From positions 47,076-111,075 of the IMG/VR virus record IMGVR_UViG_3300021962_000044: a stretch of 64,000 bases of DNA, one strand, 5' to 3'. The DNA comes from a virus. This document shows, one piece after another, positions 19,953 through 48,940 of this stretch. Made by a program: the position numbers and the translations under genes. Positions within the stretch are counted from its first letter, which is position 1. Each line of letters starts with the position of its first letter. The notes under the pieces were generated by a model. That model was not told the origin of the DNA, made no database searches, and saw nothing but the letters and a program-made list of their open reading frames with translations.

Positions 19953-22900
19953 ATGAGCAATATTCTTAAAGGTATAATAAACGAAGTTAGTCCACATAAC
20001 TATGATAGTGATTGGGATTATCAAGATGCAGTAGCACGTAGTGGTAAATCACGTTCTAGCTATCGTTCACAAGAAGATGATACTTTTGACTCTGATGTTG
20101 CATATTCCAGAAAGATGTATCAATTGGGACAACAACAAAAGGCTGCAAAAGAAAAAGCACAACGTGATAGTGACCATGATAGATTGGCAAGTGGTACAAA
20201 TGAAGATATAACTGAAGCCTCTAATCCTTATGAACCAGTAATGATTCAAGGTTATGATAAGTGGCTTAAGTTAGTTAGTATTCCTAATGTTGATAGACAT
20301 GCTTATAAAAGTGATATAACAGCAGTTACTTCCTTAGGTGATGTGATTGGTGAATTTAATACAGATAAAGATTTAGGATACGTTATTAAAAAATATGCTA
20401 AAGGTGTTAGTGAGAGTTTAGATGATCCATGGGGAGATCAAGGTAACTTTGCAGGTGATAAGCCAGTTAATCTTGGTGGTGTCTCTATTAAGAATATACA
20501 AGTGGGTGATACTGTTAAGTATTTTGGACAACCTTCAAAAGTAGTTGCTATGAGTAAGGATCGTAAATATTCTCGCATCACAATTTCTAAAGGCATGGGT
20601 ACTGTTACACAAGATGTATTAACACGTGACTTACAACAATTAGGCCAGGGCAAAGCAATAGAAGAAAATGATAATATTCAAACTAGAATGCGAATGGATG
20701 ATTATTATAAATTGGCAGATGCTATTCAGGAAAAACTTAGACAAGCAATTAAACTAGGTGATAACGAACTTGTACATAAATTATCCAAAGAACGTGCTGA
20801 CTTAGATGCACGTGTTAAAAAATATGGATTGATACCAGAATCACAACTAGATGAAATCTCTAATGAAAAGTTAGCACAATACAAAACAGCTGCCGCATTA
20901 GATGCAGGCAAAGCTGATAAAGAAGGTGATTATAAACGTGGCGATAAACGTTTCAGTGGTATTGTTAAAGCAACTAAGAAACAGTTTGCTAATGATACAA
21001 AGAAATCTGGTATCAGTCAAGGTATAAATGAATTTGCCCCCATTAAACCCCCTACTGCCGGGGCATTTGGTGGTAATAAAGATTACGGACAACCAAATAG
21101 TTCACGCTATATAGGTGGTAACAAGTTTGTAGTAGGTACTACTAACAATTATGTATTGACCGCTACAATAGACAAATGGGGATTAGAATGGGATGAGGAT
21201 GACGAGATATGGTTCTTAGACAGTCCCGGTGCCGCACATATTGCTGATGCTAGTGAAGGTGAAATAGAACTACCTCCACCCCGTGAACAAAGAAATCAAA
21301 TACATGATTTAGTAACTGATTATCTTAATGAAAGAAATTCTGCTGATTTACAAAAGGTAGCCGCATATTATGGTCACAGTAATGATGGCGAAATGGCAAC
21401 AAATGAAAGTTCAGAAGCACCTAGATTTAACAGTAAACAAGAAGTTATTAATCACTTTGTTAAAAACGGCAAAAGTGCGGCAGCAGGTGCAGCGGCATGG
21501 GAACGTGGTTATAGAGGTTCATCTAAGAAACCAATAGAGTTAAAAAAACCACCACAAAGAAGTTACCATGATGAACTAGATGATAAACGTTATTCAAATA
21601 CATTTGAAAACTTAGGTGATCAATTGAAATCTAATTCATTAAACGCACTAGTTCAAGCCAAATTAGCTATAGAGCAACAACGTCAAGCTGAAATAGAAGC
21701 TTGGAAAAGAGATTTTGAAAAGAATACAGTACAAAAAGCACAACAAGGTTTACGTAGAGAATTTGAACCAACTCCAGTTGCACAGCCTGGCGAGAAGCAT
21801 TCTGTATTGAAAGCTAGGTTAGCACAATTAAATAATGCTATACAGAAGCAAGAACTAGTAGATAAGTTAGTTGATAGATTAGAGCGTAAGGGTTTAATGA
21901 CTCCTGCAATGCAAAACGATACTGATACAAGAATGCATGTTAAGTATGGTGCAAAAGATAACTATCAATCTTTAAATAAAAAATTAGACAATGCTATTCA
22001 AATGTTACAGAATAGATTAAATATCCGTAAAATTTCTGGATTAAAAGAAGGTCATGATGAGCGTGATGAATATGATAATCCTAGAATGGGTAGAGATTAC
22101 GGCAAAGGCAATCTATTTGTAGATCCTGGTTCAAATGAATTTAAAAAAGAAGTACATATAGGTAGCAATGACGGCGAACGTGGCAGACCAAAAAATCTAA
22201 AGGGTGTTTCAAAAGTATTACCAGCTGATGCATTTGGCCGTACTACAGGTAAGATACCAGATAGTGCAAGACCAACATCAAAAGAAGATCCTTTTAAAGA
22301 CGTTGATGAAGACCTAGACGAAAATCTACATAAGTGGTTTCAAGAAAAGTGGGTACGATTTGGACCTGATGGTAAGATCCGTGGTGATTGCGCTAGAGGT
22401 GATGATAGTGAAGGTAAACCAAAATGCTTACCACAAAGTAAAGCACAGAATTTAGGCAAAGCAGGTCGTGCTAGTGCGGCAAGTCGTAAGCGTAGAGAAG
22501 ATCCTAATCCAGAACGCAGTGGTAAGGCTATCAATGTTGCTACTAAGAAAAAGAGTAACGAAGGTGTGGCGGAAGACCAACTTGATGAATTAAGTTGCTG
22601 GTCTGGTTATCATAGAGTCGCTGGCACCAAAGCAGGCTTTCCAGGTAGTTGTGCTAAAAATAAAACAAACGAAGAAGCAGTTGATGAAGCTGATATGAAC
22701 CGTAGAGGATTCTTAAAAGGTATGGGTGCGGCGGCTGTGGCAGGTAGCGCATTAGTTAATCCTATTGTTGCTAAAGCGCAAGATTCAACATCTGCTAGAG
22801 GAATAACAAAATCTGATTTACAAAAAAAATTCCCTAATAGTTTAGATATTAAAGCGACAGGAACAAGACCACCCTCTATTATAACGGATTTAGGTTTATC

Positions 22901-24290
22901 ATCCGGTAAAAATTTAGAATTGGAAGTAAAGACTACCGATTTATTGGGTAATGCATCGTTAGGATATATTGAATTTATAAATGATATAATGGTTGGTCAA
23001 TTTTATATCACTGATAAATCAAACTTACCAAAAATTTCAGCGTTTACTAAAAAGCCAGAAATTATTGAGTATTTTAAAAATATAGCCACACGAATATTAG
23101 GCACGGGTAAATTAGGTTCTGTTCAAGGAAAAATCTCACTAGACAAAGTAAATACGGATCAGGGAGTGGGAGCCGGAGTGATGAAAGGACTCTTTGAAAT
23201 TAGTTATGATACAATTAATATTAATGTAGAAACATCAAATGGATCAATTAACCTATTAGTCGGTGCCTATGAAAGTGGAAACTACTTTGTTATAAGTTTA
23301 ATAACTGCAATAAAAAAACAACAAAATAATTTAACACTTGACGAATTCAACAAAAAAGTTGTGGCGGAAGAACAACATAGTTGCCCACATTGCGGTGGCG
23401 AGATGGTTAGTGAAGAACTAATGAATGAAAAGAAAGATGCTTGCTACTATAAAGTAAAGAGTCGTTATAAAGTATGGCCAAGTGCTTATGCATCTGGTGC
23501 GTTAGTTAAGTGTCGTAAGAGTGGTGCTGATAGTTGGGGAAACAGCGGTAAGAAAAACGAAAGCATTGAAGAAGGCTGGCAAGATGAAGCACAAGAGTTA
23601 GAGGACTGGTCAAAAGAAGTCAATAAGAAATTGTATAGAGCGCATGAAACTCAGCGTCCTGGACTAGCAAGACAACTAAGCAAACTAGAACAAAAACATT
23701 TTGGTAGTAGTCTAAATCAAGGATCACTTACAGAAATAGTTAAGGCAGCATTGATGGCATTACAAAAAGGTCAAATGGTTCACTATGATCCACAACAAGT
23801 AGGTCAAATGCCATTTGGTAACATAGTAGGCGATGAAGCTAAACTTATTGCAAAATATAATATAACCCGTGACGAACTTGCTGGTTACCGTATGTTACAC
23901 GATAAAAATATGGTAGATAATCTTGAACAATTTTTAAAGTTACGCCGTTTGGTACGTGCAAAGTCATGGCCTCTAGAGTATTATGAAGAACTAGAGAAGT
24001 TAACACCGGAAGAAGCATGGTTAAAAATGGCCGATGATTTGAATTGGTCCAAAGATGACATGAATGAAGAAATTCAATCTAAAACAGATGATAAGTTATT
24101 AGCATACTACGCACAGCGTAAGGCTGAAAAACAAAAACAACAAAGTCAACCACAAGACCAACTTGATGAAAAGTGGACTAAGAAATACAAAGATAGCATC
24201 AACTGTAGTAATCCAAAAGGATTTAGTCAAAAAGCACATTGTGCCGGTAAACAGAAAAATGAAAGTGCTATTATGAAAGGTCTTAAATAA
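19953..24290 (+). CDS. 1445-aa modular polyprotein (putative internal head protein) with internal Tat signal and small basic Cys modules
   Basis: More than 15 [LIVM]-x-E or xNE joints; MNRRGFLKG internal motif; basic modules NLHKWFQEKW..KPKC, DACYYKVK..WPSAYASG and KWTKKYKDSINC..KGFSQKAHC. Confidence 0.7.
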   Translation: MSNILKGIINEVSPHNYDSDWDYQDAVARSGKSRSSYRSQEDDTFDSDVAYSRKMYQLGQQQKAAKEKAQRDSDHDRLASGTNEDITEASNPYEPVMIQGYDKWLKLVSIPNVDRHAYKSDITAVTSLGDVIGEFNTDKDLGYVIKKYAKGVSESLDDPWGDQGNFAGDKPVNLGGVSIKNIQVGDTVKYFGQPSKVVAMSKDRKYSRITISKGMGTVTQDVLTRDLQQLGQGKAIEENDNIQTRMRMDDYYKLADAIQEKLRQAIKLGDNELVHKLSKERADLDARVKKYGLIPESQLDEISNEKLAQYKTAAALDAGKADKEGDYKRGDKRFSGIVKATKKQFANDTKKSGISQGINEFAPIKPPTAGAFGGNKDYGQPNSSRYIGGNKFVVGTTNNYVLTATIDKWGLEWDEDDEIWFLDSPGAAHIADASEGEIELPPPREQRNQIHDLVTDYLNERNSADLQKVAAYYGHSNDGEMATNESSEAPRFNSKQEVINHFVKNGKSAAAGAAAWERGYRGSSKKPIELKKPPQRSYHDELDDKRYSNTFENLGDQLKSNSLNALVQAKLAIEQQRQAEIEAWKRDFEKNTVQKAQQGLRREFEPTPVAQPGEKHSVLKARLAQLNNAIQKQELVDKLVDRLERKGLMTPAMQNDTDTRMHVKYGAKDNYQSLNKKLDNAIQMLQNRLNIRKISGLKEGHDERDEYDNPRMGRDYGKGNLFVDPGSNEFKKEVHIGSNDGERGRPKNLKGVSKVLPADAFGRTTGKIPDSARPTSKEDPFKDVDEDLDENLHKWFQEKWVRFGPDGKIRGDCARGDDSEGKPKCLPQSKAQNLGKAGRASAASRKRREDPNPERSGKAINVATKKKSNEGVAEDQLDELSCWSGYHRVAGTKAGFPGSCAKNKTNEEAVDEADMNRRGFLKGMGAAAVAGSALVNPIVAKAQDSTSARGITKSDLQKKFPNSLDIKATGTRPPSIITDLGLSSGKNLELEVKTTDLLGNASLGYIEFINDIMVGQFYITDKSNLPKISAFTKKPEIIEYFKNIATRILGTGKLGSVQGKISLDKVNTDQGVGAGVMKGLFEISYDTININVETSNGSINLLVGAYESGNYFVISLITAIKKQQNNLTLDEFNKKVVAEEQHSCPHCGGEMVSEELMNEKKDACYYKVKSRYKVWPSAYASGALVKCRKSGADSWGNSGKKNESIEEGWQDEAQELEDWSKEVNKKLYRAHETQRPGLARQLSKLEQKHFGSSLNQGSLTEIVKAALMALQKGQMVHYDPQQVGQMPFGNIVGDEAKLIAKYNITRDELAGYRMLHDKNMVDNLEQFLKLRRLVRAKSWPLEYYEELEKLTPEEAWLKMADDLNWSKDDMNEEIQSKTDDKLLAYYAQRKAEKQKQQSQPQDQLDEKWTKKYKDSINCSNPKGFSQKAHCAGKQKNESAIMKGLK

Positions 24291-24336
24291 TGAAAGACTA
24301 TGATTTTTATTGGAATTTAAAAGGATACCCTAGAGG

Positions 24337-24936
24337 CTAATCAAAAATTATTCTCCAACCCTTATAAGAGGTCTCGTTTTTTCGGATGAGACCTCTTAAT
24401 CCTTTAGTACTAATAGAGTATTTTATAGCAAATTCATATGAGGTACTGTATACTCTTTCTAGAGTATTGATGTTCTCAAAGCAATAGACTGTTTTATTAA
24501 ATCTAGTATTATTAGTTCCGGCTTTGGATCGTTTTGTGAATTTTGAAGCATATTCATTTGATATTAATCTGCCGCGCACCCAACCTTCTGGAATATCTCC
24601 ACGAATTTTCTTATTAATAATACCATTGTTAATCCAAATAGTGCCATACATTGGATTATTCTCACCGGTATTCGATAATTTTGCGAGATAAGATTTTTCT
24701 TCAGGAGAGACTTTCATTCTCTGAGACATGATTAAACATGCTTTGTAATCCCCTTGTGATTTATGTATTTCGTAATGTTCTTTGATGGAAACACATAGTA
24801 AATTTGATATTTCATTATTATTGTGATTTCCATCAATATGATGAATTTCATAACTGCGACCATCTTCATCTTTAGGAATGGGCCCTATAAATGTTTCGTA
24901 AATCTTACGATGATCCGTGGTTGAATAAATACTCAT
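24337..24936 (-). mobile_element. Free-standing HNH homing endonuclease with NUMOD-type DNA-binding motifs
   Basis: YEIHHIDGNHNNNEISNL..VS..EH..IH; GENNPMYG and WINNG. Inserted antisense in a late operon. Start at 24936 has an AAGGAG SD. Confidence 0.88.
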
Positions 24937-25036
24937 GCTGGTGCTCCTTTTTAGCATTAGAGTAGTTGGGCCTGCCAGCCGCGAACTACACTTTTATTTA
25001 TCATAAGTTTAGATAAATATATGAATAAGGATTAAT

Positions 25037-25477
25037 ATGTTAGTAGAAAACTTAAAAGTGTTATTGGCTAGTACTCAAGTGTTTGCGATTAAAACGCAAC
25101 AATTCCATTGGTGCGTAGAGGGGACCAACTTCCCGCAATATCACGAATTCTTTAATACGTTATATGGAGATGTGAGTGCTACTATTGATCCTATTGCTGA
25201 ATATATTAGAATACTAGGTCATTACACTCCGGGTAGTTTAACACGTTATGCAGAACTAAGTATCATTCAAGACCAAATTAAAATTCCACGTGCTGAGTTA
25301 ATGTTTGCAGAATCATTGCAAGATTGTGAAGCAATGGGTCAACTTGTTGTTGCTATGTTTGATCAGGCAGCTAGTGAGAATCAGCATGGTATCGAAAACT
25401 ATATGGCTGAACTACAAGATTTGTATGGCAAGAAAGCATGGTTTATCCGTTCAACATTAAAAAGAGAACGTGAGTGA
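25037..25477 (+). CDS. dps: Dps/ferritin-like DNA-protection protein
   Basis: KTQQFHWCVEG.NF..YHEFF..LY, D.IAEYIR.LG and K.AWF. Confidence 0.88.
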   Translation: MLVENLKVLLASTQVFAIKTQQFHWCVEGTNFPQYHEFFNTLYGDVSATIDPIAEYIRILGHYTPGSLTRYAELSIIQDQIKIPRAELMFAESLQDCEAMGQLVVAMFDQAASENQHGIENYMAELQDLYGKKAWFIRSTLKRERE

Positions 25478-25971
25478 GAGCAATTGATTTTTTAATTGAA
25501 GTAGGTGACAGTCCATACAAGTTACCTAACCGTTGGAAAAACAACGGAGATTCTGTTAAGAAGTCAATAGAATTACCTAGTGGTAATTATTTAGAAATTG
25601 ATATAACGGCTGATACTAAATTAGCTTTAGTAAATTTTTATGTAGGTGGAAGTCAAAAAATTACAGGTGAGGGTGATGCTATTAAAATCTTTTCAACTGT
25701 AGGTAATGCCATAAATGATTATGCTATAAAGAAAAGACCATATGTAATTTGTTTTACTGGTCACATATTTGATAATAGTAGAATACGTTTATATGATAGA
25801 TTAGCAAACAGATGGTTAACTATGCCCGGGCTTAAGGGATATGTTAATTTAACAGACCATGAAGATTTATGGCCAACAGATTTAGTATATTTTATGGATG
25901 ATATACAAGATTTAACCGATCAAAAAATTTATGTTTTAGCAAGCCCAACTTGGATGAGAAACGTAACATGA
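25474..25971 (+). CDS. Hypothetical protein with capsid-targeting-like leader (paralog of next gene)
   Basis: MRAIDFLIE|VGDSPY; TGEGDAIKIFSTV; SRIRLY. Confidence 0.65.
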   Translation: MRAIDFLIEVGDSPYKLPNRWKNNGDSVKKSIELPSGNYLEIDITADTKLALVNFYVGGSQKITGEGDAIKIFSTVGNAINDYAIKKRPYVICFTGHIFDNSRIRLYDRLANRWLTMPGLKGYVNLTDHEDLWPTDLVYFMDDIQDLTDQKIYVLASPTWMRNVT

Positions 25972-26771
25972 GAGCAACAGAATTTATTTTAAATGAGGTC
26001 GGGGACAATCCTTATACGTTTGAGCCATATCAACCACCCAATCAGCAACATATTAAAGTTCGTGCCCGTAATGCAATAGATAAAATACCTCCTAATAAAA
26101 ATACAATTACAACTAATGTATCTAATCCAAATATAAAAAATTATTCCTTCGTTACTAAAAACGGACTTAGATATGTTGTAATATTAAAACCTTCTACTCC
26201 AAAAGCTAACGGAGAGATTAACACAGTAGAACTAGCATTTTATGCTATTGATAAAAGAGGTAGACCAAATTTTGACCTCACTGGTACAGGTGATGCGGCA
26301 AATGTTTTTGCTACAGTAAAAAATGTATTAGCAAAATATATTGAAGAATATAATCCAAAACTTATTGGTTTTTCAAGTGAGAAAAAAATAGATACTACCC
26401 CAAACAACGATAGTAGATTTAAACTATATTCATTATTTGCTAAACAGTTTAGTAAATGGTTTCCTGCTTATGCAAAATCATACACACGTGATGAAGCAGA
26501 CAGAACTGTGTTTATGTTTAAGCGTAATGCTGATGAACAAGTTACTGAACAAACAAACCCTAAAATAGATTTGACACCAAACTATCCTAACTATAAAGTA
26601 TTAGTGGGAGAGTTTATTGGCATTAGAAAAAACAGAGCAAGATTTTTAATTGTAGCATCTGAACTTAAACCAGGCGTACGTGAGACTGATAATATATTTA
26701 GAGCAAAAACAACTAATACACCAATCAGTATTGAAATTAGTAAAGTAAAGAATCGAACAGTAGTAGGATAA
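25968..26771 (+). CDS. Two-module hypothetical protein with capsid-targeting-like leader
   Basis: MRATEFILNE|VGDNPY; TGTGDAANVFATV; SRFKLY; joint QVTE|Q. Confidence 0.65.
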   Translation: MRATEFILNEVGDNPYTFEPYQPPNQQHIKVRARNAIDKIPPNKNTITTNVSNPNIKNYSFVTKNGLRYVVILKPSTPKANGEINTVELAFYAIDKRGRPNFDLTGTGDAANVFATVKNVLAKYIEEYNPKLIGFSSEKKIDTTPNNDSRFKLYSLFAKQFSKWFPAYAKSYTRDEADRTVFMFKRNADEQVTEQTNPKIDLTPNYPNYKVLVGEFIGIRKNRARFLIVASELKPGVRETDNIFRAKTTNTPISIEISKVKNRTVVG

Positions 26772-26773
26772 AA

Positions 26774-27211
26774 ATGAAAAAAATATTAATATTAATAATG
26801 CTAACATTAACAACTATAGCATTTGCACAAAAACAAAAGCCAATGAATATATATGAATTTCCAATCACTAGAGTTATTGATGGAGATACTGTAGCATTTC
26901 AAGCACCGTTCTTACCCCCACCATTAAAACAAGAGTTAAGTATTCGTGTATTTGGTGTTGATACACCTGAAAAAGGTCATAGAGCAATGTGTCCAAGTGA
27001 AGACCAACGTGGTCAAGCCGCTACTGCATTTACAAAAAATGCTATCAGTAAAGCACAGAAACGTCAAGTAGCTATTGCTGATTGGGATAAGTATGGTGGA
27101 CGTGTATTGGGTGATATAATACTTGATGGACAAAGTTTAAGAATGATGTTAATACAGAATGGATTTGCAAGAGAATACTACGGAGAAGCTAAAACTTCTT
27201 GGTGCAACTAA
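26774..27211 (+). CDS. Secreted thermonuclease (SNase/TNase family)
   Basis: Sec signal MKKILILIMLTLTTIAFA|Q; RVIDGDT, IRVFGVDTPE, DKYGGRVLG, GFAREY. Confidence 0.9.
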   Translation: MKKILILIMLTLTTIAFAQKQKPMNIYEFPITRVIDGDTVAFQAPFLPPPLKQELSIRVFGVDTPEKGHRAMCPSEDQRGQAATAFTKNAISKAQKRQVAIADWDKYGGRVLGDIILDGQSLRMMLIQNGFAREYYGEAKTSWCN

Positions 27212-27212
27212 C

Positions 27213-27297
27213 ACACCTTAGGACCGGTACTTGTTACCGTGGTGTAGGCGGCTTCTGCCTTAAGCAATCCAATTCGCTACTGGACCTTATAAGTGAG
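27213..27297 (+). ncRNA. Candidate small structured RNA (unassigned)
   Basis: GC-richer intergenic island with nested stems ACACC/GGTGT, CGGTA/TACCG and AGGCGG/CTGCCT; no U-tract. Confidence 0.3.
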
Positions 27298-27310
27298 CAT
27301 AAATACTAAT

Positions 27311-28450
27311 ATGAGAGCAATAGAACTATACGAATCAGCCGCAAGTGAACTAGCTAAGAAACTTCCTAGCTTAGAGAAGCACGACTATAATACCATTGAT
27401 AAACTAATGAGAAATATAGCAAAGAAACATCGTATAACCGGTGATGCATTGCATGATTTATTTGTTAGAAAATATCACAAAACTCCAGACAGTTGGATTA
27501 AAGATAAACTAGATGAGGTTGGAGGACGACATTACAACCCGGATGGTTCAACATATCGCGGATCCAATAATAAAATGCCGACATTAAATGATCCGGAAGA
27601 TATTTATAACAGGGCAGAACGAGTACCATATCAAGATCCAGCCGGTGAGGATCCTGAAATAGATGATAGTGTTAAACAAATTATTAAAAATGGATTAGAC
27701 AGGTTAAGTGATGATGAACGAAAAGTATTAATTTTAAGATTTTGGCATGATTTGACATTACGACAAATTGCTGATAAGTTTGGACTATCTGAACCTAGAA
27801 TAAGACAAATTGAAGCTAAGGGTTTAAGAAGATTACAAGTTTCTGCTAAACATAAAGGATATGATCCAGAAGCATTAAAACTGTATGTAAAACAAAACGA
27901 AAATCCACCAAAACTAATGGCTCAAGATAAAACCAAAGCACAAGCGTTAAAAGTAGCAAATGCGTATAAGACAGCGTTCCCAAAGAAGCCTTACTACCCG
28001 CCTAAAGCAAAGAAAGATATAGATACGGGTGAAGTATGGGTTTACTACCCGCCTAAAGCAAAGAAAGATGTCATTAAAGAATCTGAACAAGAAGATTTAA
28101 ATAATAATCCTATTGTACAGAAGTTTCTTGCTTGGACAAGTAAGAAGTTAAACTTAGAAACTACACCAAAGATAGAGTTTAGTTATGATAGTGATGAAGC
28201 ACAAGAAGGTCATCATACTGGAAGACATAATCCAGATACGGGTGAAGTATGGGTTTATTGTGCCAATAGAAATTTAGTAGATATATTACGTACTGTGTTC
28301 CATGAATTAACTCATGTACGTCAGGGTGAATTAAATATGATTAAGCCGGGTGATAGTTATCCAGGTAGTCCAATAGAAGCAGAAGCGGATGTAATGGCTG
28401 GCAAGTATATTAAGATATTTGGCAAAATGCATCCAGAAATATTTCAATAA
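27311..28450 (+). CDS. Modular polyprotein: sigma-70 region 4 HTH module + HExxH zincin-like module
   Basis: MRAIELYE|S leader; LDRLSDDERKVLILRF..DLTLRQIADKFGLSEPRIRQIEAKGLRRL; TVFHELTH..Q...EAEA; joints KLDE|V and VIKE|S. Confidence 0.75.
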   Translation: MRAIELYESAASELAKKLPSLEKHDYNTIDKLMRNIAKKHRITGDALHDLFVRKYHKTPDSWIKDKLDEVGGRHYNPDGSTYRGSNNKMPTLNDPEDIYNRAERVPYQDPAGEDPEIDDSVKQIIKNGLDRLSDDERKVLILRFWHDLTLRQIADKFGLSEPRIRQIEAKGLRRLQVSAKHKGYDPEALKLYVKQNENPPKLMAQDKTKAQALKVANAYKTAFPKKPYYPPKAKKDIDTGEVWVYYPPKAKKDVIKESEQEDLNNNPIVQKFLAWTSKKLNLETTPKIEFSYDSDEAQEGHHTGRHNPDTGEVWVYCANRNLVDILRTVFHELTHVRQGELNMIKPGDSYPGSPIEAEADVMAGKYIKIFGKMHPEIFQ

Positions 28451-28461
28451 AGGTTTTATAA

Positions 28462-39294: not shown

Positions 39295-39972
39295 ATGTAT
39301 AAACTTTATCAAATAACCAATACGGTCAACGGAAAATCGTATATAGGTATCACTAAACTTTCCATAACTGAACGATGGAATGTCCATATCTCTAACTCAA
39401 TAAAACCCAAATATCCATTACATCACGCTATTGCAAAGTATGGATACAATTCTTTTACAATTAATCTTTTAGAAGAAAATCAGGATAGAAAAGTTATCAG
39501 TGGACTAGAAGAACCCACTATTCAGAGACTAAGAACTCATGTAAGTAAACACGGATATAATGTTGCCAAAGGTGGTTATGGTGGTGATTTAGGGCCAGAG
39601 GCTACTGCAAAACGAATTGAAACAATCAAAAACTATTCACCTGAAAGAAAAGCCAAACATCAAGAAAAATTGCGGTTGCGTAATTTAGGTAAGACGAAAG
39701 AAAATGATGCCGGAAGATTATCACAATCAGAAAAAATAAAAGGTAATTCTTTTAGAAAAAACATACCACACACCCCTAAATCAAGTTTAAAAATTTCTAG
39801 GGCAAATACAGGTAAAATAAGATCCGAAAGCTCTAGACAGCTATATAGTAAAATTGCTAAAATAAGAGGAACAGGACCTCAATTGCAAGGCAAAAAAGTA
39901 AGTTGTATTTGCTGCCAAAGAGATTGGGATTTAGGTAATTTCACACAACATATCAAAAGGAATTTAAAATGA
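39295..39972 (+). mobile_element. Free-standing GIY-YIG homing endonuclease (NUMOD3 repeats)
   Basis: LYQITNTVNGKSYIGIT, R...H, E, GYN...GG; HT..S..KIS..N.GK.RS; inserted directly before folE. Confidence 0.9.
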
Positions 39973-40649
39973 GTTTTAATAAAAACAAAGCAGACTCGGA
40001 GTTGGGAAAACAAGTACATGAATATTTGGTAAAGATGGGTGTAGAAACACCTACAAATCCTAACGGATTGAGCCGTACTGATAAAATTGATATCATTGAA
40101 GCAAAATTCACTGATATAATGAATGCATTGGGATTAGATTTATCTGATGATAGTTTAATTGAAACCCCGAAACGTGTTGCAAAAATGATGGTAGGGGAAA
40201 TCTTTTGGGGGCTAGACTATGAAGCATTCCCAAAATGTACAACAGTTGACAACAAGATGCAATACAACGAAATGGTTGTAGAGCGTAATGTTAATGTTCA
40301 ATCTAACTGCGAACATCATTTTGTAGTAATTGATGGATTGGCTACTGTAGCTTATGTCCCTAAACAAAAAGTATTAGGGCTTAGTAAGATCAACCGTATT
40401 GTAGAATATTTTAGCAAAAGACCTCAGATTCAAGAGAGGTTAACAGAGCAAATTTTTCACACCTTACAGTTCATCCTTGATACAGAAGATGTTGCAGTTA
40501 TGATTGATGCCCAACACTATTGCGTTAAAAGCAGGGGAGTTGAGGATACAGGATCTAGTACTGTTACTTGTCGTTTAGGTGGAGGATTTAAATCTGATCC
40601 AGCGGCACGACAAGAGTTCTTACAGATTGCTAACAAAGGTTGCAAATGA
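39969..40649 (+). CDS. folE: GTP cyclohydrolase I
   Basis: [42 protein letters not shown]. Confidence 0.96.
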
Positions 40650-40837
40650 AGTTTAAATTAGGTGATATGGTTAAAAAAGTATCAGGTTCACAATGGCACG
40701 GTAAAGTAGTAGGTACATATTCAACTGAGTTAACTCCTGAAGGATATGCAGTTGAAAGTCATACAGAAAAAGGTTCTGTTCAAATATATCCTGCAAAGGC
40801 TCTTGAGTTATGGGAGTTGAATAATGGGAATGCGTAA
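40646..40837 (+). CDS. dfrB: Type B (R67-like) dihydrofolate reductase
   Basis: [52 protein letters not shown] aligns along the whole R67 SH3 core, including the VQIY active-site motif. Confidence 0.9.
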
Positions 40838-41060
40838 ACAAATGGATTACAATAGTGTACATCATCAAATCTATATGTCTGGTGTAGAACTACATAGTAA
40901 CTACAATGATGGTTACAATCAATTTGAAATCAAAAAAGATTTACATCGTATTAAATGGCTATTAGATGAGATTATGGCTGATAGTCCTACATTTGCAGGT
41001 GAGGATGAATTCTTAAAAGAACATGAGCAAACTAAGATGTGGAGAACTCTTTCAAAATGA
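40824..41060 (+). CDS. Hypothetical protein
   Basis: 78-aa ORF overlapping its neighbours. Confidence 0.55.
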
Positions 41061-41530
41061 TTTTTAATCACATTAAGAAACTTAAACAAGACGGTAAGAA
41101 AATTGGTATTACCTTCAGTACATTTGACCTACTTCACGCAGGTCATATTGCTATGTTAAGTGAAGCAAAGAATCATTGTGATTACTTAATTTGTGGACTA
41201 CAAACTGACCCGACTATTGATCGTCCTGATACTAAGAATAAACCTATTCAAAGTATCGTAGAACGACAGATTCAACTTGCGGCTTGCCGTTATGTAGATG
41301 AAGTAGTTGTATATCAAACTGAACAGGACCTTATAGACTTATTACTTATTCTACCATTAGATGTTCGCATTTTGGGTGTTGAATATGCTGAGAAAGAGTT
41401 TACTGGAAGATATGAAGGCGGAGAGCGTGGCATTGAACTTGTGTTTAATGGTCGTGACCACAGTTTCAGTAGTTCAAGTTTACGTAAACGGGTAGCTGAT
41501 GCCCAAATTATTAATACTCTTAATAAATAA
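41057..41530 (+). CDS. Cytidylyltransferase (TagD/RfaE-like)
   Basis: FSTFDLLHAGH, LICGLQTD, ER...L.ACRYVDEV, SSSSLR. Confidence 0.88.
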   Translation: MIFNHIKKLKQDGKKIGITFSTFDLLHAGHIAMLSEAKNHCDYLICGLQTDPTIDRPDTKNKPIQSIVERQIQLAACRYVDEVVVYQTEQDLIDLLLILPLDVRILGVEYAEKEFTGRYEGGERGIELVFNGRDHSFSSSSLRKRVADAQIINTLNK

Positions 41531-41534
41531 GATA

Positions 41535-41600
41535 ACCGGTCTCTTTGGGCTCATCCCGGTATACAAATTCTGCGTCCTATGCTATAATATAACATAGGAG
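41535..41600 (+). promoter_or_regulatory. Candidate preQ1-I-like riboswitch plus SD-sequestering hairpin upstream of queD
   Basis: P1 ACCGG/CCGGT, loop starting UC and ending CAUC, A-rich tail AUACAAA; TCCTATG (41575-81) pairs with CATAGGA (41593-99) over the SD. Confidence 0.45.
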
Positions 41601-41606
41601 AACACA

Positions 41607-42089
41607 ATGGCAAACAAAAAATTCTTTTCAACAAAAACATACAGACAAATAGGTCCTGTAGCATATCGTCAATGGCGTGCTGACAGTCATTGTAACTTAA
41701 TTCATGGATATGCTATGAGTTTTCACTTTGAGTTTGAAGCTGATACATTAGATGCCCGTAACTGGGTAACTGACTTTGGTGGATTACGCCCACTTAAAGA
41801 TAAACTAGAAGAATGGTTTGACCATACTCTACTAGTCGCACAAGATGACCCAATGCGTGAACATCTATTAGAACTAGGTAGATTGAAACTAGCAAAGATT
41901 ACAGAAGTAGAACGTACTGGTTGTGAAGGTATTTCAGACTTTTTATACGAATATGTTAATACAATCTTTTTACCTAACTGCGGTAGTGAAGAAGCTAAAC
42001 GTGTTTGGTGTTGTAGAGTAGAAGTACGTGAGACTGATAGCAATATGGCAGGCCGTAGTGGTCACAGAGAAGATAGAGAGTTTGAGTAA
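41607..42089 (+). CDS. queD: 6-carboxy-5,6,7,8-tetrahydropterin synthase
   Basis: CNLIHGY, WVTDFG.L, FDHTLL, TGCE, VEVRET. Confidence 0.85.
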   Translation: MANKKFFSTKTYRQIGPVAYRQWRADSHCNLIHGYAMSFHFEFEADTLDARNWVTDFGGLRPLKDKLEEWFDHTLLVAQDDPMREHLLELGRLKLAKITEVERTGCEGISDFLYEYVNTIFLPNCGSEEAKRVWCCRVEVRETDSNMAGRSGHREDREFE

Positions 42090-42937
42090 TGGCACAGTTA
42101 AAAATTTCAGAACTATTTTATAGTATACAAGGAGAGGGCCGATATATCGGTGTACCAAGTATTTTCCTAAGAACATTTGGTTGTAACTTTACCTGTGCAG
42201 GCTTTGGCATGCCTAAAGGTCAAGTAAGTAAAGAAGTAGAAGATATTGCCGCAAGGGTTCACTATTATGATGATTATAAAAAATTACCGTTGGTTAGTAC
42301 AGGGTGTGATAGTTATGCTAGTTGGGATCCTAGGTTTAAGCATCTTAGCCCTATGCGTAGCACCGATGATATTGTTGACAGCATTATGGCTATGCTTCCT
42401 CACAGTCGCTGGATGGATGAGCACCTTGTTATCACTGGTGGAGAGCCTCTACTTGGTTGGCAAAGGTCTTATCCTGAATTACTTTCAAACGAAAAGATGA
42501 GAGCATTAAAAGAGATTACTTTTGAAACTAATGGTACACAAGAACTAAGTCAAGACCTATCAATCTATCTACAGAAGTGGAAGATTAATAGAGAAAAGAA
42601 TGCATTAACATTTAGTGTTAGTCCTAAACTAAGTATCAGTGGTGAGAAGTGGGAAGACGCAATTTGTCCTGATATCATTCGTCAATATGAAACTGTAGGC
42701 TTTGTGTATTTAAAGTTTGTGATTGCTACTAAAGAAGATGCATTAGAAGCAGATAAAGCCGTACAAGCGTTTCGGACTGGTGGATTTAGAGGTCCAGTAT
42801 ACTTTATGCCATGCGGTGGTGTAGAATCTGTTTATAATTTAAATGCAAAAAATGTTGCTATTGAAGCAATGAATCGTGGTTATCGTTATAGTGATAGATT
42901 ACAAGTGCCGTTGTTTAAGAATGAATGGGGAACATAA
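42089..42937 (+). CDS. queE: 7-carboxy-7-deazaguanine synthase (radical SAM)
   Basis: ISELFYSIQGEG...G.PSIFLRTFGCN..C, CDS, VITGGEP, ETNG, VSPK, RLQ. Confidence 0.9.
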   Translation: MAQLKISELFYSIQGEGRYIGVPSIFLRTFGCNFTCAGFGMPKGQVSKEVEDIAARVHYYDDYKKLPLVSTGCDSYASWDPRFKHLSPMRSTDDIVDSIMAMLPHSRWMDEHLVITGGEPLLGWQRSYPELLSNEKMRALKEITFETNGTQELSQDLSIYLQKWKINREKNALTFSVSPKLSISGEKWEDAICPDIIRQYETVGFVYLKFVIATKEDALEADKAVQAFRTGGFRGPVYFMPCGGVESVYNLNAKNVAIEAMNRGYRYSDRLQVPLFKNEWGT

Positions 42938-42946
42938 GATAGTTCC

Positions 42947-43180
42947 ATGTTAGATTATCCAATAGATGATGATGTATTTTACAACAATGCATTAATGAGA
43001 GGTCTAGGATCAACTCTTAAGTTTGCATGGTTGCCTAAAAGATGCGTGTTAACAGGTAAGTTAATTTGGTTAAAATATGGTTATAGAATTACAGCAATGT
43101 GGACAGGGCCAGGTGAGCCCGTATTTGAACACAAGTGGCACGATAAGAATGCCCATATTATGTGGTTATTAAAAAGGTAA
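42947..43180 (+). CDS. Hypothetical protein
   Basis: 77 aa; FAWLPKRC..TGK.IWLK. Confidence 0.5.
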   Translation: MLDYPIDDDVFYNNALMRGLGSTLKFAWLPKRCVLTGKLIWLKYGYRITAMWTGPGEPVFEHKWHDKNAHIMWLLKR

Positions 43181-43184
43181 ATAT

Positions 43185-43367
43185 ATGTATGAATTAAGAT
43201 ATCTTGTCCGAAGTGGTTGGGACGGACCTGAACAAGTGTTACAATATAGAACACAACTTGAAGTTACAGACTATAGCGGAACTACTACAAACGGTAGTTT
43301 TACTAAAAAACGTGAATGGACTGAATGGCAAGATGTACCTACTATAGATGAAACTAAGAAAAAATGA
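43185..43367 (+). CDS. Hypothetical protein
   Basis: 60 aa; VLQYR...WTEWQDVP; ATGA overlap with the next gene. Confidence 0.55.
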   Translation: MYELRYLVRSGWDGPEQVLQYRTQLEVTDYSGTTTNGSFTKKREWTEWQDVPTIDETKKK

Positions 43368-44701
43368 GAACATACGATAAACGAATTGGCTTTTTAGTAA
43401 GCTATCAAACCCTCATCCCGCACGGGGGAATAGGGCAATTTACTAAAAGTTTTTGCGAATTAATGAATCAACATAATATTAAAGTTGATATCATTACGGA
43501 TAAAGAACCACAAAATACTGAGTTTGTTAAATCTATAAAAGCAAATATTATTGCTCCATTGGAATCATTAAAATATACCGATCACAGCAGTATCTTTATG
43601 TATGGAGATACATTTTGTTATGAACGAATGGCTAACTTCCGTACAGCTATTGTAGAAGCATTAGAACATAATCTATATGATGCATTGATATGTAACACCT
43701 ACGAAACTGTACAAGTAGCAAGTACTATGGGACTTGAAGATGTTATTCAAGTGATTGCATACACACACTTAGAAAGTCAAATCTTTAAAGATACAAAAAA
43801 TCCCTTTTTGTATTCTACAAATGAAATGATGCGTAAACAATTAGATATGAATGGTATTGTAGTTGGTACACAGAGTAAATTTAATCAAGTTAGTATTGGT
43901 GACACAGTATTTCATTTACCTATTCCTATCACCGAGTCTAGTCTATTAAAAGAATATCACAATCCGCGTGAAGGTATATTGTTTGTAGGTAGATGGGAAG
44001 AAGGTAAGAATCCTGAATTGTTTATTGATTTAATTGAACAAACAAAACTACCTGCAAAAGTTATGACTAGTCCAAACGGTGTTAAGAAGTTTGAAGAACG
44101 ACTATCAAAATTAGGTGTCAAGTATGATGTTCGTGCTAGTATTGTAGGTCAAGAAAAAGTTGACTTTATGACAAGTGCTAGAATTGCATTCAATCCTAGT
44201 ATTGTTGAGAGTTATGGTATGGCATTCTATGAACAACATATTCAATTACCTACATTAGTATTAGAAAATCAACGTTGGACTAATAACTTTAACAAAGATT
44301 TCTTTTACACTTGTACTAAAAAAGATATGGCATCAAAAGCAAAAGAATTGTACGATATTTTTGAAAAAGCAGAAAGATGGTATAACTTGGGATCATTGCA
44401 ACATGCACAAGAACAAGAAGCTACTGTCTTTCATAAATGGAACAACTGTTTTAATGACTTTGAACCTAAAAAATCTAACACAAATACTGCAAAGATATGT
44501 AATGAAAATACAGTTAAACTTGTTGACTTCATTAGTGATTTAAACCGTAGTATTATATGTATTGATGATGTACGCAGTGTTTTAACCAATAAACATAAGT
44601 TTAGAGTTATCTATACTGATGACGACACATATTTAACAAAAGATCCTAGTTTTGAACCAATAGAAGAAGTTGAAAGTTTATCACTATTTGAGGGATTATG
44701 A
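43364..44701 (+). CDS. GT4-like (GT-B) glycosyltransferase
   Basis: PHGGIG, LFVGRWEEGKNP, FNPSIVESYGMAFYE (E-x7-E). Confidence 0.85.
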   Translation: MRTYDKRIGFLVSYQTLIPHGGIGQFTKSFCELMNQHNIKVDIITDKEPQNTEFVKSIKANIIAPLESLKYTDHSSIFMYGDTFCYERMANFRTAIVEALEHNLYDALICNTYETVQVASTMGLEDVIQVIAYTHLESQIFKDTKNPFLYSTNEMMRKQLDMNGIVVGTQSKFNQVSIGDTVFHLPIPITESSLLKEYHNPREGILFVGRWEEGKNPELFIDLIEQTKLPAKVMTSPNGVKKFEERLSKLGVKYDVRASIVGQEKVDFMTSARIAFNPSIVESYGMAFYEQHIQLPTLVLENQRWTNNFNKDFFYTCTKKDMASKAKELYDIFEKAERWYNLGSLQHAQEQEATVFHKWNNCFNDFEPKKSNTNTAKICNENTVKLVDFISDLNRSIICIDDVRSVLTNKHKFRVIYTDDDTYLTKDPSFEPIEEVESLSLFEGL

Positions 44702-45528
44702 AAAAGATTTTAATTACTGGTTGTTCAGGATACATAGGTTCACATCTATCTAAGATGTTAGCTAATGATTATGAAGTTTATGGTTTAGATATTGATGAAC
44801 CACAGGCACCACTTAATGAGTTTTATCGCTGTGATATCAATAGACAATTTGCTATCCCAGGTGATATAGAATATGATTGTGTAATTCATTTAGCGGCATT
44901 AGTACGTGTGGGTGAGAGTGAACAAATACCTATCAAGTACTATATCACTAACTTAAATGGTACAATGAATGTAGTTAATAAAATAAAGACAAAGAACTTT
45001 ATCTTTGCTAGTACAGGCGCCGCACAAGATTGTTCTAGTGCTTATGGTATCAGCAAGCGAGCCGCTGAAGATGTAGTTAGAGAATATTGTACAAAACATA
45101 AACAACAAGATTATACTATCTTTAGATTCTATAACGTTATCGGAAGTGATGGTTATGAACCAACCAACCCTGATGGTTTAATGTACAAACTAATGGAAGC
45201 ACGTGATACAGGCGTATTTACTATATATGGTAATGATTATGATGTATCACCTGACGGTACTTGTGTACGTGACTATGTTCATGTTAATGAAATATGTGAT
45301 GCAATAAAACAAGCTATTGAGAAGCCTAGTAATAGTGTTGAATGTCTAGGACATGGTGTAGGATATACGGTACAAGATATTGTTGATTTATTTCAAAAAG
45401 TAAATAATTGTGACTTTACAGTAAAATACGGCACTAGAAGAAAGGGTGATTTACCTAGTAGTGTACTAGCCAATGTGTCACCTTATATGCGTAATCTTTA
45501 CTCTATGGAAGAGTTATTGAAAGTTTAA
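44698..45528 (+). CDS. NAD-dependent NDP-sugar epimerase (GalE-like)
   Basis: ITGCSGYIGSH, HLAA, YGISK (YxxxK), RFYNV.G, DGTCVRDYVHV, RRKGD. Confidence 0.9.
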   Translation: MKKILITGCSGYIGSHLSKMLANDYEVYGLDIDEPQAPLNEFYRCDINRQFAIPGDIEYDCVIHLAALVRVGESEQIPIKYYITNLNGTMNVVNKIKTKNFIFASTGAAQDCSSAYGISKRAAEDVVREYCTKHKQQDYTIFRFYNVIGSDGYEPTNPDGLMYKLMEARDTGVFTIYGNDYDVSPDGTCVRDYVHVNEICDAIKQAIEKPSNSVECLGHGVGYTVQDIVDLFQKVNNCDFTVKYGTRRKGDLPSSVLANVSPYMRNLYSMEELLKV

Positions 45529-47051
45529 GCTAAATGTGTCATTAAGGTATTCATTTGTTGAACACCACCTTTTGATAACTGAAATCCTTTTTGGTCTGCA
45601 CGTTTGATTCGTTGGTCATAACTAGGATGTGAGCTATTGGGAAGTTTAGTTATACTATTATAAAAGTCGTAATCAGATTGTTTTTGGTGCAAGAACTTAA
45701 ACATCTCAACTTTGTTGTAACCTAAAGCCCTACATAACTTAATAGCAAAGTCGTCAGCATCCATTTCTTCCCGACGTGCTTTCCCGGGATCAGGCTGAAA
45801 ACCGTGTCCTAGGGCAATGTGTCCCAGTTCATGTGCAATAGCAAATGCCAGTGTAGAATCAGGAGCATCCCAAAACACAGTTAGGTCAAGACTGACATTA
45901 CGAGTATCAGCATTTCCTTGAACCCACTGGTCATTCGACGTAACAAGAACTTTTGTCCCCTGCAGTCTTTGTGCCCATTCTGGTCCGGCGGCTCGCATTA
46001 ACTTACCCAGCATACCATTACTGCGTTGTTGCAGTTGTTCAAATCTAGGCATCCAAACGTCAGGTTGTTTTTTTATAGTTTCTAAATCTTGATATTCACC
46101 TGCTTTAGCTAAACCAGTAGCACCTAATGCGGCAGCACCTGCTGCACCTTTAAGCAGGTCTCTACGACTAATAGCTTCAGCTAATTCATTGTTCGTTTTT
46201 ACAATAGGTGGAACCCAGTTGTATAGTTCTCTTGGACCGCCGGATTCATTGTGGTAATAATTTGCTTTAAACGGACCATCAAATTTAATAACGTTTTGAA
46301 CTTCTTTTGGATTACCACCTGTTAATCTCTTAAATGCATCTATTGCTTTTTCTTTTGTCAAACCAGCCTTATTAAACTCACCGGTATCACCAATAGGCAA
46401 GATTAAGCCATCAGGTGTAGCACTCCATAATGTATATCCATCTGGATTGTCTCTCCTTGCTACGATTTGAACTTCATTTGGCTTATAGTAATGTTTACTA
46501 TTCAATGGTGGTTTAGCTAACTTACGTGAGAACGTTCCCTTATTAGTAGGATCATCTTTCATAGCAGTTAATTCTAAGCCACTATCACTAATCAATTTTA
46601 ATAGACCTTCTGGAACTTTATTCATTAACTCTTTGCGTATCTGAATGCCCACAACATATGGTTTCTTAACAGGGATCCCTATACCTCTCGGATGATAGAT
46701 ACGTTCTTCTGTTTCTTGTTTATACATTGGGTTACTAGCTGTTGGACCCGTACCATCAGGTTGATTATAGAATTGCATATAAGAGAATGGCATTACTTTG
46801 AATCCAGCTTGACGTAATGCATTTCTATCTAGTACAAGTTGAATACTGCCGCCGCCATACGGGAATCTATAATATTGATTTCTACTTGCGCTGATTACTG
46901 GTATCTCCCAACCACCTTCTTCATCTGTATCAGATAAGTGTGGTTGTATCACACCTTTTCTGAGTATGTTCCAGATTTGATTAGGTTGTGATACACTATG
47001 ATAAACATAGTCTCCGCCTACGGCTTCTGATAAAAATTCACTTGCTCTCAT
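45525..47051 (-). CDS. Modular polyprotein: ART-like module + Tat signal + M48 metallopeptidase
   Basis: Leader MRASEFLSE|A; YVYHS...ISASR...ETEERI; LAE|AISRRDLLKG..AKA|G; AIAHELGH, EMDAD, SHPS...RI. Confidence 0.75.
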   Translation of the reverse strand: MRASEFLSEAVGGDYVYHSVSQPNQIWNILRKGVIQPHLSDTDEEGGWEIPVISASRNQYYRFPYGGGSIQLVLDRNALRQAGFKVMPFSYMQFYNQPDGTGPTASNPMYKQETEERIYHPRGIGIPVKKPYVVGIQIRKELMNKVPEGLLKLISDSGLELTAMKDDPTNKGTFSRKLAKPPLNSKHYYKPNEVQIVARRDNPDGYTLWSATPDGLILPIGDTGEFNKAGLTKEKAIDAFKRLTGGNPKEVQNVIKFDGPFKANYYHNESGGPRELYNWVPPIVKTNNELAEAISRRDLLKGAAGAAALGATGLAKAGEYQDLETIKKQPDVWMPRFEQLQQRSNGMLGKLMRAAGPEWAQRLQGTKVLVTSNDQWVQGNADTRNVSLDLTVFWDAPDSTLAFAIAHELGHIALGHGFQPDPGKARREEMDADDFAIKLCRALGYNKVEMFKFLHQKQSDYDFYNSITKLPNSSHPSYDQRIKRADQKGFQLSKGGVQQMNTLMTHLA

Positions 47052-48940
47052 TAGTGTTTCAATAATAGTGTTGACAATACATCTTGTCTATTAGCACTGA
47101 TATCACCCTCACCCGGGGCAATAATAACATTCCATTTCTTAATGTTATTCTTTTGAGGAGTAGCCATCATCTCATTGTAATCAATGATAGTATCACGTTT
47201 TAAGTTATATTGTTGTGCTAATCTGTCTTTTAATTCGTCTAATGCTGCCGCATCTTTTGGTTGCCATGCACCATCAGCAGTCTTATCTAACTTACCGGTC
47301 TCATCTTTCTTTAATAAGTCATAAAATAACTTACTAGGAACAATACGACTATTTTTTGTAACATCTAATTGCGGGTCTTGTTGTTTAACTTGTTTTTCTT
47401 GACTAGTACTTGCACCTTCACTCCAGTTAACAATAAAGTTACTTGGCTTTTGACCTAATGCCGCATCTGCTATTTTTGTATAAGCATAGAACTTAACATC
47501 AGGATGAGAGGCAGCTAACTTAAATGCTAAATCCATATATTCTGGGCTAAAGAAATCACCAGCATCATGCCAACGAATAGTTAGATTGTAACCACCTTTT
47601 TGTGCTGATTTTTCTTCTTTTGTAATTTCATTACTTAATTGATTGAAGAAACCATCTGGATCATTCAATAAGAAAGTTAGTATTCTTCCGTCGCTTAACC
47701 ATGGCCCTTCAAACTGAACCTTACCGCCCTTCATAGCAAAACAATCCACTTTACATGAGCCGGCACCTGGACATGTATTAACTACTATAAGTTCGTTTGT
47801 ACCTTCATCTAATGCGATACCAACTAATGCGGCAAAGCCAATGTTATAAAATTGTTCTAGTTCACCATTAGAATGTTTCATCTTCTCATTTTGTTTAAGA
47901 AGTTTCTTTGGGCGAACACCTAATGCTGTTTTGATTTGGTCTGTATCGTAGCGTTTACCTTCTTCATTGTAGTATTTGACTACACTTGAGCGATGTATGT
48001 AAGGTAGTTTATATTTGTCTGTTTTACCCTTTTCACGATTACGAATTCTATCTAAGTAATCTTCTAGTTCTTGACCTTTTAGTTCACGTGTTTGTGCTGG
48101 GAGTTTTGTTGCTTCATTTACACCTTGTTTTTTTATTAATGAAATAATATTACTAATACCATTTAATGAAATATCCCTCTCGGATGTAGTTCCAAATTTA
48201 CCAGTTGGGTTTTGCCATGTAAATTTCACTGTTAAAACATTTGAATTAGCAATTTTATCAAGGGCATGGGTTAAATCTACTCTACCCCTATTAGAAATAG
48301 TTACAGGAATGGTTTTAATAGTATTGGTATTATTATTCAACATATACTTGAATTCAGTATTTGGCTGAAAATTATAGTCATGTCCTAACTTAAATGTTAA
48401 CCGTAAACCACCATAATTTATCCAATGAAGAAAAAGGTCATTAGTATTATTAGATGCCATAATTTCTTTATCTTTTTTATCAAATTTTGATGTTCTAATA
48501 GTTACGCTCCATTCACCAATATTTTCAGTTGTAGTATTTGATAAAGCTTCACCGGCTGCGCCCGTTGCGGCTGCCGCGCCCATACCTTTTAAGAACCCTC
48601 TACGGCTAATGTCAGCTTCATTCACACCGTGTTGTTTATGTTGTGTAGATGGTTTACCACGTTTATCACTATCAGGGAACATTATAGACATACTTTTACC
48701 ATAAGCCTGATCAATTGTTTTAGGATCTATTTTAGATTTATCAGTTCTAGCCTTATGTGTAAACTGTGCTAATTGTTCAGGGGACATTTTATCTAATTCT
48801 TCGGAAGACATTTCATCTATTTTTTCTTCCGGTTCATCACCTGATTGAGCAAGGAATTGATCCATACTCATAACTTTGATGCCACCTACAGCACCCGGTA
48901 ATTTGGGTGTCGCACCCTCAAATAATTCTGTAAAGTTCAT
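47051..48940 (-). CDS. Modular polyprotein: Tat-signal module + gp88-like Fe-S/radical-SAM-like module
   Basis: Leader MNFTELFE|G; VNE|ADISRRGFLKG; TCPGAGSCKVDCFA, IRWHDAGDF and FYAYTK (phage gene-88 family pattern). Confidence 0.7.
   Translation of the reverse strand: MNFTELFEGATPKLPGAVGGIKVMSMDQFLAQSGDEPEEKIDEMSSEELDKMSPEQLAQFTHKARTDKSKIDPKTIDQAYGKSMSIMFPDSDKRGKPSTQHKQHGVNEADISRRGFLKGMGAAAATGAAGEALSNTTTENIGEWSVTIRTSKFDKKDKEIMASNNTNDLFLHWINYGGLRLTFKLGHDYNFQPNTEFKYMLNNNTNTIKTIPVTISNRGRVDLTHALDKIANSNVLTVKFTWQNPTGKFGTTSERDISLNGISNIISLIKKQGVNEATKLPAQTRELKGQELEDYLDRIRNREKGKTDKYKLPYIHRSSVVKYYNEEGKRYDTDQIKTALGVRPKKLLKQNEKMKHSNGELEQFYNIGFAALVGIALDEGTNELIVVNTCPGAGSCKVDCFAMKGGKVQFEGPWLSDGRILTFLLNDPDGFFNQLSNEITKEEKSAQKGGYNLTIRWHDAGDFFSPEYMDLAFKLAASHPDVKFYAYTKIADAALGQKPSNFIVNWSEGASTSQEKQVKQQDPQLDVTKNSRIVPSKLFYDLLKKDETGKLDKTADGAWQPKDAAALDELKDRLAQQYNLKRDTIIDYNEMMATPQKNNIKKWNVIIAPGEGDISANRQDVLSTLLLKH

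Follow-up and report, generated by a model that had tools for sequence, protein, structure and literature searches.

The window analysed here comprises 64,000 nucleotides and forms the 3′ part of a 111-kb viral record in IMG/VR (IMGVR_UViG_3300021962_000044). The GC content of the record is about 35%, and its CheckV completeness of 32% corresponds to a genome of about 350 kb. Three open reading frames (ORFs) of the window contain, in mid-protein, a signal of the type that directs proteins to the twin-arginine translocation (Tat) pathway. P0003 (19953–24290, + strand) is a modular 'polyprotein' of 1445 residues with the leader MSNILKGIINE (19953–19985) and 24 [LIV]-x-E sites. P0004 (47051–48940, − strand; 629 residues) consists of the leader MNFTELFE, a spacer, a Tat cassette and a GP88 domain (PF17338). 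P0005 (45525–47051, − strand; 508 residues) has the leader MRASEFLSE, a domain that we call A (residues 10–289), a Tat signal and an M48-like peptidase.

How good are these signals? When all six frames of the 111-kb record were scanned with the Pfam model TAT_signal (PF10518), exactly three matches came up, all buried in ORFs. All exceed the curated cut-off of 22.7 bits, scoring 28.4, 26.7 and 25.2 bits (E per genome from 3e-7 to 3e-6); when the whole proteins were scanned, the scores were 23.5, 22.0 and 18.1 bits. At site 1, inside P0003 (+ strand), the junction V-D-E (22680–22688) is followed by the signal ADMNRRGFLKG...VAKA (22689–22778), and the mature part would start with QD at 22779. 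At site 2, inside P0004 (− strand), the junction V-N-E (48625–48617) precedes ADISRRGFLKG...EALS (48616–48539). At site 3, inside P0005 (− strand), L-A-E (46184–46176) precedes AISRRDLLKG...LAKA (46175–46101). The signals begin at residues 913 of P0003, 109 of P0004 and 293 of P0005, and none is N-terminal in the translated protein. An initial annotation of this DNA had reported Tat-type signals in mid-protein at these places and on these strands, and the Pfam matches bear it out.

The initial annotation had also placed each signal 3–4 residues behind an x-x-E site. All three sites prove to be aliphatic-x-Glu, and 3–4 residues lie between the junction Glu and the first Arg in every case. Signals 1 and 3 have an h-region of 15–18 uncharged residues followed by A-K-A; these are the two for which an A-x-A ending had been claimed, and signal 2 reads A-L-S. 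The near-identity of the DNA at sites 1 and 2 likewise held on inspection, down to synonymous codon choice (CGT-AGA for the Arg pair, and TTA, AAA and GGT in both). Because [LIV]-x-E is rare in the three ORFs (about 0.6–3 per 100 residues), its presence 3–4 residues ahead of three signals out of three is unlikely to be accidental; our own estimate of the probability by chance is roughly 1e-4. Upstream of the signals, none of the three ORFs contains a hydrophobic segment. Chance resemblance to Tat signals is ruled out by the hidden Markov model (HMM) scores and by the recurrence of the signals across relatives. We conclude that the computations support genuine Tat-type export signals, export itself being predicted.

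A signal-like segment of another kind occurs elsewhere in the window, at about 14520–14610 (+) within the ORF 13936–15825. This buried, Gly/Ala-rich hydrophobic stretch, GMGKALGTAALAGSLALGGLSS, lies directly behind L-D-E and has a single Lys in place of the twin arginines; it is not of the Tat type.

In what setting do such signals occur in related phages? IMG/VR holds hundreds of related contigs, including the complete genomes G001 (352 kb) and G002 (335 kb), and the clade to which this lake phage belongs consists of uncultured freshwater, T4-related jumbo phages of about 350 kb. Among cultured phages, megablast and tblastn with the ORFs gave no near match, only distant matches to the GP88 domain. 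G001 and G002 share the Tat ORFs at 62–90% identity. Our census of Tat signals in the window and its relatives comprises 21 distinct contexts. In all 21 there is a Glu 2–4 residues before the twin arginines and none stands at a leaderless, plain N-terminus; an aliphatic residue is found two positions before the junction Glu in 20.

The modules that combine a Tat signal with a cargo occur both as stand-alone genes (leader, Tat signal, cargo) and as embedded cassettes, as seen for the M48 peptidase and for the cargo of P0004, whose stand-alone form is P0009. In many relatives the stand-alone M48 genes begin with M/V-RA[NSK]EFI[SNDT]E, directly followed by [AD]I[SN]RRDLLKG...AKA/GE (a slash marks a predicted cut). 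Domain A of P0005 and the Tat-M48 module are likewise separate genes in many relatives (L006–L009 for the former, L010–L020 for the latter), and the fusion of the two recurs in L004, from another metagenome, with the junction VSE instead of LAE.

Whole cassettes have been exchanged. In L109 the backbone of P0003 is preserved, with both flanks 91–99% identical, around a Tat cassette with another cargo, and a small module next to it is found on the other side. In L027 and L039 the backbone of P0004 is about 97% identical, and the cassette between NVNE/A and GLNE/A is replaced by one in which the Tat signal has a lipobox (VAGC) at its end and is followed by an unrelated cargo. The P0003 homologue of G001 (G001:C1:190185-193193; L192, L194 and L196) has 1012 residues, with modules reordered and some missing, an arrangement that fits modules able to work independently once separated. 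Embedded cargos have a V/L-x-E site at either end.

Two further genes among the relatives (L063:1791-3008 and L106:2381-3160) join a leader to a spacer (AIAI.MKKAGKKPK) and a Tat signal and share a conserved basic C-terminus (KAAKRR.SFCARM...RRW.CES).

If cleavage after aliphatic-x-Glu is to release the signals, which protease might perform it? Both G001 and G002 encode a Peptidase_S77, the family of the T4 gp21-type prohead protease (E 1e-27 to 1e-28), and a Gp23-type major capsid protein (E 1e-97 to 1e-100); in G001 a scaffold-like coiled-coil gene lies between the two. The capsid protein has four [LI]-x-E motifs within its first 43 residues, the last of them LAE. It is 66% identical to the capsid proteins of Vibrio phage 2.275.O and Pseudomonas phage PA5oct, the latter described as kin of the RaK2/121Q jumbo myoviruses.

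The T4 protease gp21 cleaves after L/I-x-E, and the capsid-targeting sequence (CTS) of T4 is the first 10 residues of IPIII, MKTYQEFIAE (PMC9026906). Proteins that bear it are packaged, processed and ejected, and phages carrying a CTS–GFP fusion make the infected cells fluoresce (PMC9026906). All three Tat ORFs begin with a leader of about 10 residues ending in L/I-x-E. The clade leaders MRANEFISE, MRAKEFITE and MRASEFLSE resemble the T4 CTS, the sequence of which we confirmed. At least nine further ORFs of the record have CTS-like leaders, and the leader-bearing proteins without a Tat signal include one with a sigma-70 region 4 domain and one with DUF6321. Since the leader also occurs on proteins devoid of a Tat signal, it is a module independent of that signal. 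The sigma-70 protein is encoded at 27311–28450 (+), with the leader MRAIELYE... and the region 4 domain at a Pfam E of 3e-17; were it packaged and injected, it could, when infection starts, play the part of a sigma-factor mimic or decoy.

Are the Tat ORFs expressed late? The motif GATAAATA(C/T) stands 12–35 nt before gene starts in about 13 of its 24 copies, for example at 7342, 16906, 18637 and 25012 (+) and 50061 (−). It occurs 27 nt before the tail tube gene and 61 nt before the tail sheath gene (Phage_sheath_1C, E 1e-12), and it is close to the T4 late motif TATAAATA. We suggest that GATAAATA is probably the late promoter of the clade, analogous to TATAAATA in T4. It heads the units holding all three Tat ORFs, for which the evidence of late expression is the motif itself. 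One copy (18637–18644, +) lies 28 nt upstream of an ORF with the leader MKIKQITE (18665–19951), which abuts P0003. Another (50054–50061, −) lies 63 nt upstream of the start at 49998 and heads a three-gene unit in which P0004 and P0005 follow a first gene (48937–49998, −) with the leader MRFTEIISE, DUF6321 and no Tat signal.

What do the signals carry? Cargo 3, in P0005 (45528–46100, −), is an M48-type zinc peptidase with HExxH, a downstream Glu and an H-P motif (35.7 bits against a Pfam cut-off of 20.3). H90, E91, H94, E112 and the H-P motif are invariant in the nine sequences aligned. By sequence its best matches in the Protein Data Bank are 3c37, an M48 peptidase, and BepA; an AlphaFold2 (AF2) model with a pLDDT of 82 has Escherichia coli BepA among its top Foldseek matches, weakly (TM 0.45–0.5). 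BepA is the periplasmic β-barrel assembly-enhancing protease of E. coli. Cargo 2, in P0004 (48113–48538, −; residues 135–276), ends at a second GVNE/A site. Word-based searches gave no homologues for it, and a full HMMER scan gave mostly compositional matches and one real relative, the stand-alone P0009, in which MRFSEIINE and ITRRDFLKG are followed by the same domain (pairwise E 1e-16). A protein-language-model atlas offered a lead only, to VasI/IalB-like periplasmic proteins. Cargo 1, in P0003 (22779–23369, +), has about 197 residues and ends at V-A-E (residues 1137–1139). It has no homologues in IMG/VR or in a set of 5.8 billion proteins; the atlas gave weak leads and no usable family, and a single-sequence AF2 model with a pLDDT of 33 was unusable and was not used.

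The relatives add two cargos. The cassette of L109 holds a TonB_2/TolA C-terminal domain, that is, domain III of TolA (E 7.6e-19). Over 109 residues it is 50% identical to the C-terminal part of a Limnohabitans protein, with 64% identity and 25 consecutive identical residues in the best segment (L109:6019-6540 against L111:787-1731). The Limnohabitans protein is identified as TolA by its position, encoded immediately after tolQ- and tolR-like genes. Domain III of TolA is a periplasmic hub bound by TolB, by the group A colicins and by g3p of filamentous phages (PMC7391070). This suggests, from the sequence match, capture of the domain from a Limnohabitans-like host, and hosts for the clade among Limnohabitans-like freshwater Comamonadaceae, which are Gram-negative, despite the gap in GC content. 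In G001 and G007 a leader is followed by about 75 residues, V-x-E, a Tat signal and a GH19 glycoside hydrolase. All identifiable cargos (the BepA-like M48 peptidase, TolA domain III and the GH19 muramidase) thus act in the cell envelope or periplasm, and because every one of them works in the periplasm, the Tat signals are credible as periplasmic addresses.

How might a buried signal and a capsid leader work together? Computation shows the Tat signals and the motif at their junctions, the leaders, the late-type promoter motif, the exchange of cassettes, what kinds of cargo they hold and, in complete relatives, the genes for protease and capsid. We propose that the three ORFs would be late, capsid-targeted proteins whose leader of 8–11 residues, resembling the T4 CTS, would take them into the prohead core. 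There the gp21-type protease would cut after aliphatic-x-Glu, removing the leader and separating the modules. One product of each ORF would then start 3–4 residues before the twin-arginine motif, with its formerly masked Tat signal at the N-terminus. Ejected together with the DNA, the cleaved products would reach the cytoplasm of the next host and refold there. Tat is the only route that accepts finished, folded proteins. Host Tat would export the products to the periplasm, where signal peptidase I would cut at A-x-A; for the lipobox variant of one relative, signal peptidase II would do so instead. The cargos would be at work on the envelope as soon as infection begins. Likely uses would be the exclusion of competing phages or bacteriocins, with TolA domain III as a decoy, or envelope remodelling.

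We give about an even chance (roughly 0.5) to such a two-address system, in which the head protease cuts a capsid-targeted leader or polyprotein and the injected product is exported by host Tat. Slightly more tentative is the fuller version. Here the Tat signal would be a masked second address on folded effectors preloaded in the head; unmasked by the head protease, it would bring them to the periplasm through host Tat before any phage gene is expressed. Burial would prevent premature export in the producing cell, and exchangeable cassettes would include captured host domains serving as decoys. The initial annotation had already proposed that capsid proteolysis unmasks the signals. In its favour now stand the gp21-type protease and gp23-type capsid of the clade, the CTS-like leaders, the periplasm-acting cargos and the buried signals without start codons.

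Several observations weigh against this proposal. Cleavage, packaging, injection, Tat export and the physiological role are all steps that we infer. The record itself, 32% complete, is without protease or capsid genes. The h-region of signal 2 is short, at 12 uncharged residues, and its A-L-S is no clear A-x-A. One junction of the census, TDE in L109, is without the aliphatic residue at P3. Seven large relatives scanned for Tat signals had at most one weak, sub-threshold match each, and PA5oct and Vibrio phage 2.275.O, also scanned, had no Tat cassette. Being sparse in the clade, the cassettes are accessory, and since those two phages gave none, there is no cultured model that carries them. 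The stand-alone proteins with leader and Tat signal could equally pass as having normal N-terminal Tat signals, exportable in the producing cell without packaging, and the GH19 cargo could simply be an exported endolysin. Finally, translation might begin inside the ORFs. Site 1 has an in-frame ATG at 22695, two codons before the twin arginines. The initial annotation had allowed for an internal start at this site alone, which was right as regards site 3 but not site 2: an in-frame GTG (48625–48623, the V of GVNE), seven codons before the twin arginines, is a possible start there. Most genes of this phage have weak or no Shine–Dalgarno sequences, and for this reason analysis of these sequences could not settle the matter of internal starts.

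Might the proteins, then, be exported in the very cell that makes them? If Tat exported them in the same infected cell, to bring about lysis, to exclude superinfecting phages late on or to alter the envelope, the leader would be just an n-region combined with a conserved 5′ recombination or translation module, and the buried copies would be freed by internal initiation or by a cytoplasmic protease. The stand-alone forms, with an n-region of 11–12 residues, are in the normal range; an ATG or GTG lies close upstream at sites 1 and 2 and in several relatives, in a phage whose gene starts need little or no Shine–Dalgarno sequence; and GH19 is a typical endolysin fold. We nevertheless regard export in the producing cell as rather unlikely. 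No ATG, GTG or TTG lies within 14 codons upstream of site 3, and five distinct buried signals, counted over the window and its relatives, are without a start codon over that distance. Embedded cargos would stay joined to large downstream domains unless the flanking V-x-E were also cut, and the one protease known to prefer such sites in phages of this kind works within proheads (PMC9026906). The same leader, moreover, is found on proteins that lack Tat signals, while those proteins of this phage that are plainly secreted use leaderless, N-terminal Sec signals.

The burial of the signals might instead be an accident of gene fusion, stand-alone Tat genes having been joined in frame behind others so that their signals no longer work. 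P0005 does have the look of two genes, separate in many relatives, fused into one, and a gap of one residue suffices to align its junction TNNELAE with RANEFISE, the leader of the stand-alone form. Such relics would hardly be expected, however, as three independent buried signals in one genome, with more in relatives, or with the twin arginines, the h-region and A-x-A kept while their neighbours vary (LAE, VSE or ISE; S or N before RR). Nor would one expect recent exchange of whole Tat-cargo cassettes within near-identical backbones, one of them with a freshly captured host TolA domain, or invariant catalytic residues in the M48 cargo. We judge this explanation improbable. More improbable still, to the point of being barely credible, is that the segments are not export signals at all, and are either parts of ejection proteins that insert into membranes or form channels, or else Tat signals lying inside proteins inserted by Sec and Tat together, as in the actinobacterial Rieske protein. 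Ejection proteins of other phages do insert into the envelope, and internal Tat signals do occur in polytopic Rieske-type proteins. Yet the segments match the full S/N-R-R-x-F/L-L-K consensus and exceed the Pfam cut-off, they are followed by cleavage sites of the A-x-A or lipobox kind, and the cargos are soluble periplasmic domains. The Rieske-type reading was rejected because no hydrophobic helix precedes the Tat signal in any of the three ORFs.

To what known systems may delivery by leader and buried Tat signal be compared? The closest is that of the internal proteins of T4 and their CTS. IPI, IPII, IPIII and Alt, like the Tat ORFs, have a short N-terminal leader ending in aliphatic-x-Glu, with EFIxE in both. 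A gp21-type protease and a gp23-type capsid are common to the two, here by the genes of complete relatives, as are unrelated cargos behind a conserved leader, hypervariable loci and late expression, the last being motif-based here. T4 internal proteins, however, act in the cytoplasm and have no second address, whereas here the cut would expose a Tat signal; a further difference is that the long, polyprotein-like ORFs of the clade hold several cargos, each module being flanked by cut sites on either side.

In its logic, the nearest parallel is the bipartite transit peptide of chloroplasts. In Tat substrates of the thylakoid lumen, such as OE23 and OE17, cleavage in the stroma unmasks a thylakoid Tat signal. 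Two targeting signals act in series in that case also, and removal of the first leaves the Tat signal at the new N-terminus. The analogy is one of logic and not of homology: the first compartment would here be a capsid, followed by the cytoplasm of another cell. The phage signals share with bacterial Tat signals the twin-arginine consensus, a weakly hydrophobic, Gly/Ala-rich h-region and A-x-A or a lipobox, but bacterial Tat signals are N-terminal in the primary product and the copies in the window are buried behind 109 to 912 residues. Gp16 of T7, an internal core protein with a transglycosylase domain, resembles the proposed effectors in being internal to the capsid, delivered at infection and active on the envelope. 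The T7 core proteins are, however, thought to reach the envelope directly during ejection, with no host export pathway or signal peptide. Endolysins with Sec signals or signal-anchor-release (SAR) sequences are, like the GH19 cargo of the relatives, muralytic phage enzymes that use host export; their signals are N-terminal, of the Sec type, and serve in the producing cell, whereas the signal of the GH19 protein is of the Tat type and stands behind a leader and a domain of 75 residues.

Full-text literature searches found no phage Tat signal tied to capsid targeting, a prohead protease, ejection proteins or jumbo phages. The claim of the initial annotation that there is no described precedent thus stands for phages in the literature searched; it needs qualifying by the close conceptual analogue in chloroplasts. 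If our proposal is true, it would describe a new route for virion-delivered proteins, from capsid to cytoplasm to periplasm by way of host Tat, and would explain the use of Tat rather than Sec, since Tat accepts proteins already finished and folded. It would widen the arms-race model of T4 internal proteins from cytoplasmic defences to the cell envelope, and the TolA decoy, the BepA-like protease and the muramidase would be natural time-zero effectors of the envelope.

The window contains two ordinary signals of the Sec type, both at true N-termini and without a leader. One belongs to a staphylococcal-nuclease homologue (26774–27211, +) which, without a capsid-type leader, lies between leader-bearing genes; the other is on a small ORF at 58703. 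A second upstream motif, TATAAT(A) (3395, 9125, 29441, 41583 and 54398, +), stands 6–9 nt, and up to about 17 nt, before the ATG of several genes of replication or metabolism type, and the genes headed in this way may have very short-leadered or leaderless mRNAs.

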